The notes under the pieces were generated by a model, which saw nothing but the letters and a program-made list of their open reading frames with translations, had not been told where the DNA came from and did no database searches. A stretch of 44,417 nt of DNA from a virus (taxonomy: Duplodnaviria; Heunggongvirae; Uroviricota; Caudoviricetes): the IMG/VR virus record IMGVR_UViG_2606217118_000001. One strand, 5' to 3'. The translations under genes and the position numbers were made by a program. Positions 1,081-44,417 of the stretch are shown piece by piece. The first letter of the stretch is position 1. Each line of letters starts with the position of its first letter.

Positions 1081-1662
1081 TTACCCTATAGGTGCTACTG
1101 GCCATTCAATATCCGGTGCAGTTGTTGTATTAACACGGTTCAGCAACACCCGATACTTCTTCCAGGCTTCCAGCAACGAGATTTCTTCCTCCGTTGCGAT
1201 TTCCAGATCTACAGCATCCTGAAGTGGCGCAATATGCTCACTGGCTACCTGCATCAGGCTGTTTTTTGTTTCTTCTGCCTCCCGGATCCGGAACAGTTTT
1301 TCTGCTTCCGTATCCTTCACCCAGGCTGTGCCGTTCCACTTCTGAAACTCCCCTTCCGGCGATAACCAGGTAACATTTTCCGCTAACGGACCGAGTTCAG
1401 AAATAAATAACGCGTCGCCGGAAGCCACGTCATAGACCGTTTTACCCCGATGGTCTTCAACGAGATGCCACGATGCCTCATCACTGTTGAAAACAGCCAC
1501 AAAGCCAGCCGGAATATCTGGCGGTGCAATATCGGTACTGTTTGCTGGCAGACCTGTATGAGGCGGAATATATGCGTCACCTTCACCAATAAATTCATTA
1601 GTTCCGGCCAGCAGATTATAAATTGTTATGGTCCGTGGTTGTTCACTCATTCTGAATGCCAT
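1081..1662 (-). CDS. tfa: Tail fiber assembly protein (lambda Tfa-like)
   Basis: 193 aa, [24 protein letters not shown]...; start overlaps stf stop. Confidence 0.9.
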
Positions 1663-35946: not shown

Positions 35947-36012
35947 TATATGTGAAATGCATATATTGATATAAATGCAGCAATATCAAATAGTTAAAAG
36001 GTTATATTTTTA

Positions 36013-36393
36013 ATGAATGATCTTGATAAGAAAAAGTACGACCAAGTTATTGATTCTGTGAACTTCGCCCTTAGATCGTTGTCAGAGTTATTCGAAGCCC
36101 ATGGAATGCATGGGATGTATGATCTAACGAATCCAAGCCTTGATGAGCTAAAATTAGTGTTTACAAGGATGAAAAACGGAGTTGACTCTATTGCTCAAAG
36201 CTTTGAGCACATGGTAGAGACAGCAAAGGATATGGATGCCGCAAGTGCAAGCATAAATGTTATGAACATCAAGCAAGGATTGATGTATGCTGAATCACTA
36301 TTGCTTGCTGTAGAGAAATTAGACTATGATAAATGTGTGGAAGCAAATACGCAGATAAAAACCCACGATCTTCCACCAACCCAATGGCCTTAA
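36013..36393 (+). CDS. Hypothetical 126-aa protein in the immunity-region moron slot (rexAB position); unknown function
   Basis: ORF MNDLDKKKYDQVIDSVNFALRSLSELFEAHGMHGMYDLTNPSLDELK...; AT-rich codon usage unlike backbone; follows cI on same strand. Confidence 0.65.
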   Translation: MNDLDKKKYDQVIDSVNFALRSLSELFEAHGMHGMYDLTNPSLDELKLVFTRMKNGVDSIAQSFEHMVETAKDMDAASASINVMNIKQGLMYAESLLLAVEKLDYDKCVEANTQIKTHDLPPTQWP

Positions 36394-36462
36394 TAGTAAA
36401 TCAAGATTTCATATAGTCTATTTGAACTAGGCTAGTACCATAAAATAAACCGAGGAAACGCA

Positions 36463-36564
36463 ATGAAAACCATGTCCACTCTGCACAAAGATGCAATGAC
36501 CCTGAGATCTCTCATTAACGAGATTCTGGCTCGCTCGTCAGCACACACCAAAAAAGCTGCATAA
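36463..36564 (+). CDS. Hypothetical 33-aa protein downstream of the 126-aa moron gene
   Basis: MKTMSTLHKDAMTLRSLINEILARSSAHTKKAA with strong SD GAGGAAA 6 nt upstream; followed by terminator. Confidence 0.45.
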   Translation: MKTMSTLHKDAMTLRSLINEILARSSAHTKKAA

Positions 36565-36574
36565 TGCCTACATA

Positions 36575-36603
36575 ACCCGGCCTCAGCGCCGGGTTTTCTT
36601 TGC
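36575..36603 (+). terminator. Rho-independent terminator ending the cI-moron transcript
   Basis: acccggc-ctcagc-gccgggt hairpin followed by TTTTCTTT. Confidence 0.75.
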
Positions 36604-36739
36604 CTCACGATCGCCCCACCTAAAAACACATAACCAATTGTATTTATTGAAAAATAAATAGATGCAACCCACTAAACCACGCAATTCTGATCTCTCCTTA
36701 CATCGCCGAGGCAATACATCCACGCTAAAAAACAACACT

Positions 36740-36830
36740 ATTAAATACAAAGCGTTATAAAAAACCACGCCAACTTACAACAAATTGTATTGATCTTGTA
36801 AAGTACATATCGCACTATTTAACCGTCAGC
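36740..36830 (+). promoter_or_regulatory. Putative OL/PL region
   Basis: AT-rich segment upstream of nutL with operator-like motifs (acaaattgtattgatcttgtaaagtaca) resembling those between cro and cI. Confidence 0.4.
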
Positions 36831-36864
36831 AGGACGCTGGAAGCCAAATGGAACAGACTGGCAG

Positions 36865-36909
36865 GCTCTTTAAACAACGTCGACTCTCGACTACGTGGCT
36901 GAAAAGCCA
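36865..36909 (+). promoter_or_regulatory. nutL-like site (boxA GCTCTTTAAACAA plus boxB hairpin tggctgaaaagcca)
   Basis: boxA-like motif then GAAAA-loop hairpin closely matching the nutR hairpin; lies upstream of N. Confidence 0.6.
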
Positions 36910-37007
36910 GATCACCCAACCACATAAGCTGTGGGATGCAATGCCGAAGCAACCGTCTCAGGAGGAGCTTCGAGATTGCATCGCCAAAGTTTATTCGGGA
37001 GGAATCC

Positions 37008-37280
37008 ATGTCCAGAAAAACAGAATTTAAAGGCACCGCAGCTTCTCGCCGTAGAGCTCGTCGCGCAAATCTGCAAAGTCAGGAGGCGATCAGCTCCGAC
37101 ACGCTACACAGGCCAACCCCTTCACGAGTGGTCTTGCAATGCAAGCGCAAACCAGCAATGAGAGCAGAAGTGATAACTCTGACAACGTTGACCAGAAAAT
37201 ATGAAGGTTCAACTTGTCTTCCGAACGTAGCTCTTTACGCGGCAGGCTACCGGAAATCAAAACAACTGACGGCGAGATGA
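37008..37280 (+). CDS. N: Antitermination protein N (non-lambda; P22 gp24-like C-terminus) with N-terminal arginine-rich motif
   Basis: MSRKTEFKGTAASRRRARRANLQSQE...LPNVALYAAGYRKSKQLTAR; SD GGGAGGAA; longer track ORF starts upstream. Confidence 0.75.
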   Translation: MSRKTEFKGTAASRRRARRANLQSQEAISSDTLHRPTPSRVVLQCKRKPAMRAEVITLTTLTRKYEGSTCLPNVALYAAGYRKSKQLTAR

Positions 37281-37296
37281 TAAATTCATTTGCTAA

Positions 37297-37878
37297 TTAC
37301 TTGTTTTTGCCATGCTTATCCTGAGCGATAAGTTCATCCATAAGGCTGTCTGCCTTCCCGGCAAACCGAATGTAGCACTCATTTCTATAGCGTTCCGGGA
37401 TAACAAAACGGTCGATTTCAGGATATCCAGTAGCAGAAGGTATCCGAATAAGAAGCCCTTTTTCGAGCAATGAGATTGCTTCAGGGCTTCCCTTTTCTGT
37501 CTTTAGCTGGTTATTCGCGGCTACAGCGAATGCCAAATACGCTCTTTCTCCAAGAGTTAACGAATCAAACAAATCTTGCACATATTTTTCTTCTTTAGAT
37601 TTGCACTTCTGAGCAGCGGATACCTCAATTCTTTCAGTCACAGCGTGATAAGCGGAATTAACAACACCGTTAAGCACATAGCTAACGCAGAACAACAGGA
37701 TGTAATACATCCAATAATAAGGAAGGATTTCTGGATTATGCAGGTTTATCCATTCTTTTACGCTTACCGGCATAACAATAATCAATATGATCAGGATGAT
37801 TAGCATATGAATCAACTGTTTAAGTGTCATTCCTTGCAGGAAAAAATGCATTAGTTCCTGCCACCATGAGTTGTTCAT
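37297..37878 (-). CDS. sieB: Superinfection exclusion protein B (SieB-like) membrane protein, antisense to the PL operon
   Basis: 193 aa MNNSWWQELMHFFLQGMTLKQLIHMLIILIILIIVMPVSV... with two hydrophobic segments; convergent with N. Confidence 0.6.
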   Translation of the reverse strand: MNNSWWQELMHFFLQGMTLKQLIHMLIILIILIIVMPVSVKEWINLHNPEILPYYWMYYILLFCVSYVLNGVVNSAYHAVTERIEVSAAQKCKSKEEKYVQDLFDSLTLGERAYLAFAVAANNQLKTEKGSPEAISLLEKGLLIRIPSATGYPEIDRFVIPERYRNECYIRFAGKADSLMDELIAQDKHGKNK

Positions 37879-38022
37879 CGGCGTTTCTCTTTTGCTCTCT
37901 GTAGGGGTGAATAGAGTTTATCCGATTTCTCGCTGTAGGGGTACACGAGAACCACCGAGCCTGATGTGGTTAAAAGACAGGCACAATCTTTACTACCGCA
38001 ATCCACTATTTAAGGTGATATA

Positions 38023-38109
38023 TGGAAGAAGAATTTGAAGAGTTCGAAGAGCATCCTCAGGATGTGATGGAACAATACCAGGACTATCCGTATGACTACG
38101 ACTATTGAT
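38023..38109 (+). CDS. Small acidic ORF (lambda orf28-like)
   Basis: MEEEFEEFEEHPQDVMEQYQDYPYDYDY, 28 aa, overlapping start of ral. Confidence 0.35.
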
Positions 38110-38292
38110 AAAAATCAATGGTGTGGACAATTCAAGCGATGCAATGGATGCAAGCTGCAATCGGAATGCATGGTTAAGCCTGAAGAAATGTTTCCTGTAA
38201 TGGAAGATGGGAAATATGTCGATAAATGGGCAATACGAACGACGGCAATGATTGCCAGAGAACTTGGTAAACAGAACAACAAAGCTGCCTGA
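38092..38292 (+). CDS. ral: Restriction alleviation protein Ral
   Basis: 66 aa MTTTIDKNQWCGQFKRCNGCKLQSECMVKPEEMFPVMEDGKYVDKWAIRTTAMIARELGKQNNKAA. Confidence 0.85.
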   Translation: MTTTIDKNQWCGQFKRCNGCKLQSECMVKPEEMFPVMEDGKYVDKWAIRTTAMIARELGKQNNKAA

Positions 38293-38474
38293 TAGTGGCC
38301 TTTATTTTTGGCATAAATAACAGAATAAACACTGCACTGTGTATTCATTCCAACGAGTGAATACACGGAGCAATGTCGCTCGTAACTAAACAGGAGCCGA
38401 CTTGTTCTGATTATTGGAAATCTTCTTTGCCCTCCAGTGTGAGGGCGATTTTTTATCTATGAGGATATGAATAG

Positions 38475-38843
38475 ATGTCAAACATCAAAAAATACATCAT
38501 TGATTACGACTGGAAAGCATCAATAGAAATTGAAATCGATCATGACGTAATGACAGAGGAAAAACTTCACCAGATTAATAATTTCTGGTCAGACTCTGAA
38601 TACCGACTCAATAAACACGGCTCTGTATTAAATGCTGTATTAATCATGCTGGCGCAACATGCTCTGCTTATAGCAATTTCAAGCGACTTAAATGCATATG
38701 GTGTTGTGTGTGAGTTCGACTGGAATGATGGAAATGGTCAGGAAGGATGGCCTCCAATGGATGGTAGCGAAGGAATAAGAATTACCGATATCGATACATC
38801 AGGAATATTTGATCCAGATGATATGACTATCAAAGCCGCCTGA
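38475..38843 (+). CDS. ea10: Ea10-like early protein
   Basis: 122 aa MSNIKKYIIDYDWKASIEIEIDHDVMTEEKLHQINNFWSDSEYRLNKHG... Confidence 0.6.
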   Translation: MSNIKKYIIDYDWKASIEIEIDHDVMTEEKLHQINNFWSDSEYRLNKHGSVLNAVLIMLAQHALLIAISSDLNAYGVVCEFDWNDGNGQEGWPPMDGSEGIRITDIDTSGIFDPDDMTIKAA

Positions 38844-38916
38844 GCGCGGCGTTACCGCATACCAATAACGCTTCACTCGAGGCGTTTTTCGTTATGTATA
38901 AATAAGGAGCACACCA

Positions 38917-39054
38917 TGCAATATGCCATTGCAGGGTGGCCTGTTGCTGGCTGCCCTTCCGAATCTTTACTTGAACGAATCACCCGTAAATTACGTGACG
39001 GATGGAAACGCCTTATCGACATACTTAATCAGCCAGGAGTACCCAAAAATGGAT
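38917..39054 (+). CDS. cIII: CIII (FtsH/HflB inhibitor), 45 aa, C-terminally shorter than lambda CIII
   Basis: [46 protein letters not shown]; stop TAA overlaps kil start. Confidence 0.8.
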
Positions 39055-43779: not shown

Positions 43780-44417
43780 CACAGAAAACCCCCAGCTAGG
43801 CTGGGGGTTCCGGAAAGCTTTCAGCTTTGAGCCAGTTATTAAAACCCCTTTTGATTTGTTAAAACACCTTGCGGTCTGGCAACTGCAAGTGTCAAACAAG
43901 AAATCAAAAGGGGGTCCCAATGGGGAACGAAAAGAGCTTAGCGCACACCCGATGGAACTGTAAATATCACATAGTTTTTGCGCCAAAATACCGAAGACAA
44001 GTGTTCTACAGAGAGAAGCGTAGAGCAATAGGCAGTATTTTGAGAAAGCTGTGTGAGTGGAAAAGCGTACGGATTCTTGAAGCTGAATGCTGTGCAGATC
44101 ATATCCATATGCTTGTGGAGATCCCGCCCAAAATGAGTGTATCCGGCTTTATGGGATATCTGAAAGGGAAAAGCAGTCTGATGCTTTACGAGCAGTTTGG
44201 TGATTTGAAATTCAAATACAGGAACAGAGAGTTCTGGTGCAGAGGGTACTACGTCGATACGGTGGGTAAGAACACGGCGAAGATACAGGATTACATAAAG
44301 CACCAGCTTGAAGAGGATAAAATGGGAGAGCAGTTATCGATTCCCTATCCGGGCAGCCCGTTTACGGGCCGTAAGTAACGAAGTTGGATGCAAATGTCAG
44401 ATCGTGTGCGCCTGTTA
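43780..44417 (+). mobile_element. IS200-family insertion sequence, partial (left-end hairpins plus tnpA; right end beyond window)
   Basis: Left-end palindromes cccccagc-tag-gctggggg and gaaagctttc followed by an IS200-type TnpA ORF. Confidence 0.8.
43920..44378 (+). CDS. tnpA: IS200/IS605-family Y1 (HUH) transposase TnpA
   Basis: Start MGNEKSLAHTRWNCKYHIVFAPKYRRQVFYREKRRAIGSILRKLCEWKSVRILEAECCADHIHMLVEIPPK (152 aa). Confidence 0.9.
   Translation: MGNEKSLAHTRWNCKYHIVFAPKYRRQVFYREKRRAIGSILRKLCEWKSVRILEAECCADHIHMLVEIPPKMSVSGFMGYLKGKSSLMLYEQFGDLKFKYRNREFWCRGYYVDTVGKNTAKIQDYIKHQLEEDKMGEQLSIPYPGSPFTGRK

Follow-up and report, generated by a model that had tools for sequence, protein, structure and literature searches.

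The DNA analysed here (the window; 44,417 nt) is, as a whole, a lambda-like prophage or phage; when 24 kb of it was compared, phages such as PhiR11_1 covered 81% at ~97% identity. Between the antiterminator gene N and ral it carries sieB, on the strand opposite to pL, together with an internal in-frame start for the product Esc, an upstream promoter and a homologue of the antisense RNA sas (Table 1). P22, lambda and HK140 have this arrangement of N, sieB and ral too, with sieB opposite pL, and sieB at this locus is already known and annotated in public genomes.

Table 1. Features of the sieB locus and its surroundings, in order of position in the window.
Feature	Position	Strand	Basis and remarks
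Operator-like repeats	36625-36795		Upstream of N; read from sequence
Putative pL	36790-36818	+	TTGATC-17-CACTAT; read from sequence
Putative nutL	boxA 36865-36877; boxB hairpin 36879-36891	+	Read from sequence
N antiterminator	37008-37280	+	Convergent with sieB; Pfam PF25694 (N_peptide), E=4e-32; PHROG 271; the 90-aa form in the RefSeq annotation of the identical locus
sieB coding sequence, P22-type allele	37297-37878	-	193 aa; ATG start; list of open reading frames
esc	37297-37806	-	In-frame from Met25 (ATG 37806-37804); N-terminally truncated product of 169 aa; P22 annotation and conservation
SieB-specific codons 1-24	37807-37878	-	Absent from Esc; nucleotide-level constraint
sas antisense RNA homologue	37874-37999	+	Covers, in antisense, the start codon, 5' UTR and promoter of sieB
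Direct repeat CTGTAGGGGT (ACCCCTACAG on the sieB strand)	37899-37908 and 37933-37942	+	Two copies
Equivalent of the mapped P22 sieB RNA start	37908	-	30 nt upstream of the ATG; transferred from P22 annotation
P_sieB promoter	37915-37945	-	31 nt; exact match to the promoter annotated in P22
Conserved hairpin inside the sas region	37959-37982	+	GCCTG/CAGGC stem; covariation in nine loci
ral	38092-38292	+	Next gene of the pL operon, divergent from sieB; Pfam PF11058, E=1.6e-48

The sieB reading frame lies on the minus strand where an earlier note, made from the sequence of the window, had placed it, and both its ATG start and the N-terminus quoted in that note are found in the list of open reading frames. 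The protein matches the Pfam family SieB (PF14163) over residues 24–164 with an E-value of 9.1e-25 and a score of 87.4 bits (cutoff 26), and PHROG 1301 over its full length (residues 1–193 of 193; E=9e-122); with this Pfam score and an end-to-end match to PHROG 1301, what would be expected of a chance reading frame is far exceeded. SieB of lambda and SieB of P22, used as controls, both match PF14163. Searches with the protein returned no match in NCBIfam, no match at E ≤ 0.01 in PADLOC-DB v2 (a library without a SieB model) and no significant match in a sequence-profile search of the PDB. The reading frame is full length, at 193 aa by comparison with 192–195 aa in homologues.

The window protein is identical to P22 SieB at 161 of 191 residues (84%; E=2e-114), whereas its identity to lambda SieB is 22% over 128 aa (E=3e-4), and the allele is therefore P22-type. 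The alignment with SieB that the earlier note had suggested as a check thus supports the assignment, both through P22 SieB and through PF14163; the likeness of the N-terminus to SieB of lambda and P22, which the same note had proposed, holds for P22 but not for lambda, which has a different N-terminus. Identity to the P22 protein is uneven along its length, with 96% for residues 1–24, 94% for residues 25–77 and 71–79% for the linker and C-terminal domain.

The N gene and sieB converge, as previously proposed; 16 nt separate the two stop codons, and no terminator was detected in the gap. The putative pL and nutL (36790–36891) would drive transcription running antisense through sieB; the pL-like hexamers, the operator-like repeats and nutL, all upstream of N with the hexamers and nutL on the plus strand, bear out the predicted placement of sieB opposite pL. 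On the other side, the ral–sieB intergenic region of 213 nt contains P_sieB and sas, and further plus-strand genes and elements follow downstream, namely DUF2528/ea10, the cIII thermoregulator element, gam and bet. A search for homologues of SieB returned 118, down to ~40% identity, all of them in PF14163 where domains were recorded. The surrounding DNA was available for eight distant homologues that are 37–59% identical to the window protein; since sieB is convergent with an N-family gene in all eight of these loci, antisense placement is a conserved feature of the family, and a cI-like repressor lies nearby wherever the contig reaches that far.

Several other features of the window were observed alongside. 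The cIII thermoregulator was matched by the Rfam family Lambda_thermo at 38903–38961 (plus strand) with 88.5 bits against a gathering score of 50, which confirms, at the level of sequence, that a cIII leader of the lambda type lies further along the pL operon. Two further Rfam matches scored above their gathering thresholds: STnc490, an Hfq-binding sRNA, at 43787–43910 (plus strand), close to the right-hand end of the window, and IS009 at 1121–1319 (minus strand) within a 193-aa minus-strand reading frame at the left end. A reading frame of 126 aa (36013–36393, plus strand) lies between the cI-like repressor and oL/pL, in the place that rexA/rexB take in lambda; PHROG 16322 ('unknown function') is its sole match, with none in Pfam, PADLOC or NCBIfam, and it is followed by a 33-aa reading frame (36463–36564) and then by a strong intrinsic terminator (36574–36595). 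This gene is a candidate for a moron or defence gene expressed in the lysogen.

The antisense orientation had been taken to imply a promoter of its own for sieB, and a likely one is present: the promoter feature of the P22 record is identical in the window at 31 of 31 nt, running from 37945 to 37915. The equivalent of the P22 RNA start could be placed because the flanking sequence is identical to that of P22. P_sieB is conserved in lambda and in the eight distant loci; it was not flagged by a generic sigma-70 scan. In 1993 Ranade and Poteete reportedly mapped the P22 sieB promoter by RNase protection and identified that of lambda by homology. Two copies of the direct repeat CTGTAGGGGT, 34 nt apart, overlap the -35 region and the +1 position of P_sieB; these boxes, which read ACCCCTACAG on the sieB strand, recur in lambda and throughout the nine diverse SieB loci, and the promoter core is conserved with them in the eight distant loci. 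The repeat may bind a protein or belong to the sas structure.

In the P22 record a second coding sequence, esc, begins at codon 25 of sieB, and sieB has been described as encoding both the exclusion protein and its inhibitor, Esc (PMC3224144; PMC10002423). The window has an ATG at the same codon, which answers the question raised in the earlier note of an internal Esc-like start; the methionine and the preceding 40 nt are conserved and identical to P22, and Met25 is retained in 24 of 25 aligned homologues. The sigma-70 scan around sieB flagged a single site, ATGACA-17-TATGCT (37830 to 37802, minus strand), inside the reading frame; its -10 element overlaps the Esc start codon and a transcript from it would begin after the Esc ATG, and it was given no weight because one site was found where 3.1 are expected by chance. 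We also observed that the annotated start of one 'SieB' homologue, the protein P0104 (Enterobacter hormaechei), falls exactly at the Esc methionine and that its C-terminus is longer and unrelated past ~residue 140; this protein may represent an Esc-only form or a variant with a swapped domain.

The third known component of the module, sas, was absent from the earlier note. The sequence of the P22 RNA (P22A-sas, 127 nt) was published in 2026 (PMC13397905), and the corresponding region of the window differs from it by three mismatches and one indel in 127 nt (~97% identical). In the described system, sas RNA shifts translation from SieB to Esc, by which means the phage escapes its own system (PMC12197685; PMC7067206). 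Neither scanning nor inspection of the plus strand upstream of 37874 gave a convincing -35/-10 pair for sas, which may have a promoter of its own or be processed from the pL transcript; no sas or sieB-leader family was found in Rfam, either at the E-value threshold for 36000–39000 or at the gathering threshold for the whole window; and the thermodynamic fold of sas alone was no more stable than that of shuffled sequences (z=-0.33). Comparison of nine diverse loci did reveal a hairpin inside the sas region, the five pairs of which are 100% paired across all nine with compensatory changes in two of them; its covariation score was reached by four of 500 shuffles and collapsed in slid controls. 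The hairpin has no clear U-run after it; it may form the sas 3' end, contribute to stability or serve as a tL1-like signal, and could act on either strand.

Among the matches listed in a megablast of the coding region the closest phage is HK140 (98.1% DNA identity), followed by lambda-like phages of E. coli at 94–97% and P22-like phages of Salmonella at ~90%. Copies with 100% identity occur among the complete E. coli genomes of RefSeq, where they are annotated as 'super-infection exclusion protein B'; a match was found in 1014 of these 5426 genomes. The DNA around sieB has a different affinity: lambda is ~99% identical to the window across ral and the whole ral–sieB intergenic region, including P_sieB, but this similarity ends near 37899, ~20 nt before the sieB ATG, beyond which the sequences are unrelated. 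On the far side, the cassette is bounded by the conserved 3' end of N (~37214–37280), which is common to many Stx phages that do not have this sieB. With conserved flanks on both sides of a divergent gene, we conclude that sieB alleles have been exchanged between these flanks. Such exchange of cassettes is usual in lambdoid phages.

Across the family, conservation is concentrated in the N-terminal part of the protein. In an alignment of 25 homologues residues 1–70 were nearly invariant and the C-terminal two-thirds strongly divergent, with C-terminal pairwise identities of 15–26% among nine diverse sequences. At the nucleotide level a further division was apparent within the invariant part. 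Where residues were the same, per-column codon identity was 0.75 for codons 1–24 by comparison with 0.42 for codons 25–70 and 0.40 beyond (Mann–Whitney p=4e-6 for the synonymous conservation of codons 1–24); residues 25–70 showed a codon identity of 0.38–0.46 at 67–79% amino-acid identity. Codons 1–24 correspond exactly to the stretch from the SieB start to the Esc start, and lie a short way upstream of the reported sas 5' end on the opposite strand; the constraint on them fits either a promoter or pairing region of sas embedded there, or a structured leader governing the two starts. In a consensus fold of the leader, the region of the SieB AUG is paired with the stretch that immediately precedes the Esc AUG; one compensatory pair was found (covariation term +0.92), and because the columns are almost invariant this fold is neither supported nor refuted. 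It is these family-level observations alone that exceed existing annotation, and they concern SieB generally rather than this window.

The earlier note had described two strongly hydrophobic segments in the protein. In Kyte–Doolittle analysis (19-residue window) the first, at ~17–45, is the strongest and peaks at 3.03 at residues 22–40, as described, but the second, at ~51–77, is only moderate (1.4–1.6). An AlphaFold2 model built with the 25-sequence alignment had a mean pLDDT of 79.8, with ~90 for residues ~95–190 and 56–68 (low confidence) for the membrane region. It predicts a short helix at residues 4–16, which is amphipathic (hydrophobic moment 0.43), a hydrophobic helix at 19–35, a further short helix at 38–47 and a very long one at 56–105, which opens with the second hydrophobic segment and is followed by a compact alpha/beta domain; the compact structural matches of the modelled C-terminal domain were winged-helix proteins. 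The predicted layout of SieB is thus a two-helix membrane module (~residues 1–77) leading through a long helix to a C-terminal cytoplasmic domain. An analysis of positive-inside charges gave no decision on topology.

Taken together, these features very probably represent a complete and intact sieB/esc/sas superinfection-exclusion (abortive-infection) module of the P22 type in a lambdoid E. coli prophage. Every component has been identified by sequence comparison with the characterised P22 system, from which the function would carry over by homology, and no sequence feature contradicting the sieB assignment was found. By comparison with P22 sieB/esc/sas (NP_059604, YP_063724; Ranade & Poteete, 1993), the window shares an 84%-identical protein, the 31-nt promoter, Met25, the sas sequence and the context of the transcription start, as well as the slot between ral and the N homologue (gene 24 in P22), opposite pL. 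It differs in that the window has E. coli as host and a lambda-like backbone (gam/bet/exo, lambda-type ral, ea10, cIII), and in that P22 SieB has 192 aa and a different C-terminal tail. The SieB alleles of HK140 (gp46) and of the E. coli phages 'Lambda_ev/1H12/2G7b' are separated from that of the window by few substitutions, with 94–98% nucleotide identity over the whole gene and the same neighbours, and belong to the same allele group.

SieB of P22 halts macromolecular synthesis midway in the lytic cycle of superinfecting P22-like phages, with P22 itself spared (PMC10883804). On this model, pL of the window would be repressed in the lysogen, and a weak constitutive P_sieB would transcribe sieB leftward against the silent pL operon. 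Two in-frame starts on the one mRNA would then yield SieB, responsible for lethal exclusion, and Esc, its antagonist; on entry of a sensitive heterologous phage, SieB would shut down macromolecular synthesis in mid-lytic-cycle and the infection would abort. During the phage's own lytic growth sas RNA would pair with the translation-initiation region of sieB, blocking the synthesis of SieB while that of Esc goes on, and so provide self-protection. SieB itself would be a two-helix inner-membrane protein in which the near-invariant N-terminal membrane module may be the effector, and the variable, putatively winged-helix-like cytoplasmic domain the part that confers specificity or acts as sensor. 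As the C-terminal region is 71–79% identical to that of P22, the spectrum of excluded phages may differ.

Esc, on the same model, would be an antiholin-like partner, and it probably acts as a dominant-negative in mixed oligomers: all that it lacks is the amphipathic helix with the opening residues of TM1, which would suit such a role. The analogy is with the lambda holin and antiholin S105/S107, in which one reading frame with two in-frame starts likewise gives a lethal membrane protein and an inhibitory isoform, an interaction that has been listed beside that of SieB and Esc (PMC3224144). It would be a functional analogy only. The longer form of S inhibits, whereas in SieB it is the shorter one, Esc; and SieB, with its large cytoplasmic domain, serves in defence rather than in lysis timing. 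Lambda RexAB and other prophage Abi systems resemble the module in being expressed from a prophage, in or near the immunity region, in being membrane-associated and in arresting the infected cell after phage entry. RexAB is, however, a two-protein system in the cI operon with no homology to SieB and with neither a self-antidote nor an antisense switch, both of which SieB has; the rex slot of the window is filled by the unrelated 126-aa reading frame.

We considered whether the locus might be better explained in other ways. It is scarcely tenable that the gene is a lambda-type SieB, orthologous to lambda sieB/git (NP_597779, lambdap48), even with a common PF14163 family, the same genomic slot and orientation, and ral and upstream promoter and intergenic DNA ~99% identical to lambda: the protein is nearer to P22 SieB by 84% against 22% (E=3e-4), the lambda DNA similarity stops ~20 nt before the ATG and lambda is absent from the best 30 matches of the coding-region megablast. 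Orthology with lambda was therefore rejected at the level of the allele, on the 22% identity and the break in the DNA before the ATG, and is true at the level of the family only. Lambda, too, has been reported to have an in-frame Esc (PMC3224144), but its SieB has another N-terminus and its coding DNA is unrelated, and a P22-type sas promoter or pairing region inside the reading frame is therefore not shared. We also think it very unlikely that sieB is an inactive remnant, no longer expressed or functional. Such a reading could appeal to the failure of the generic scan to detect P_sieB and to the finding that lambda can form plaques without sieB (PMC10695390), from which it follows that loss would be tolerated. 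It has to contend with a full-length reading frame, a promoter identical to the one mapped in P22, an intact Esc start and sas, copies with 100% identity in many independent E. coli genomes and, family-wide, a strong suppression of non-synonymous change in residues 1–70.

Two other proposals accept an active locus and assign it a different role. According to one, SieB would act like SieA and stop DNA injection at the inner membrane, instead of aborting the infection. It is a small prophage protein of inner-membrane type, as is P22 SieA (PMC10883804), and many annotations and reviews file SieB under 'superinfection exclusion' or injection blocking. This we find hardly credible, as the 84%-identical P22 protein is described as arresting macromolecular synthesis in mid-cycle, after entry (PMC10883804), and an intracellular antidote, Esc, with a sas switch needed in the phage's own vegetative growth, is sensible only for a lethal activity exerted after entry. 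The other would make the locus chiefly regulatory, with convergent transcription from P_sieB and the sas/sieB duplex tuning N and the pL operon and the protein of secondary importance; the 16 nt between the stops of sieB and N, the lack of a terminator there, and a promoter, 5' UTR and codons 1–24 that are conserved as nucleotides despite C-terminal divergence of the protein could all be read in this way. Against it, residues 25–70 are conserved as protein with normal synonymous drift (codon identity 0.38–0.46), indicating selection on the protein itself, and the C-terminal domain folds confidently in the AlphaFold2 model. The P22 phenotype is, moreover, said to have been assigned to the SieB protein by Ranade and Poteete in 1993 by means of amber mutants, which also speaks against a chiefly regulatory locus, and we regard that proposal as most unlikely. 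An abortive-infection module of the P22 type is thus the reading we prefer.

The family-level data lend themselves to a more general proposal, which we put forward tentatively as a possible but doubtful one. SieB proteins would combine a nearly invariant membrane effector with a variable, winged-helix-like phage-sensing domain, and codons 1–24 would serve in addition as an RNA control element. The tethered domain may sense nucleic acid or protein of the invader and so set the exclusion spectrum; the 72 nt of codons 1–24 may act as the promoter of sas, as the region where it pairs, or as a leader helix in which the SieB start is paired with the Esc start; and this RNA element may have been kept across phages of Enterobacterales with SieB proteins that are only 37–59% identical. 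The proposal was absent from the literature searched. If it is true, the target range of the window SieB would be unlike that of P22, the C-terminal domain being ~21% different and the linker ~29%.

A lysogen with this prophage would be expected, from the sequence homology, to abort infection by some heteroimmune lambdoid or P22-like phages, which bears on phage typing, on host range in phage therapy and on competition between prophages in E. coli, where about one-fifth of complete genomes have a related copy. Descriptions of SieB still call its molecular mechanism poorly understood, and the architecture seen here offers testable handles on it: a membrane module that is nearly invariant, a variable and possibly winged-helix-like domain, and a nucleotide constraint between the two starts.
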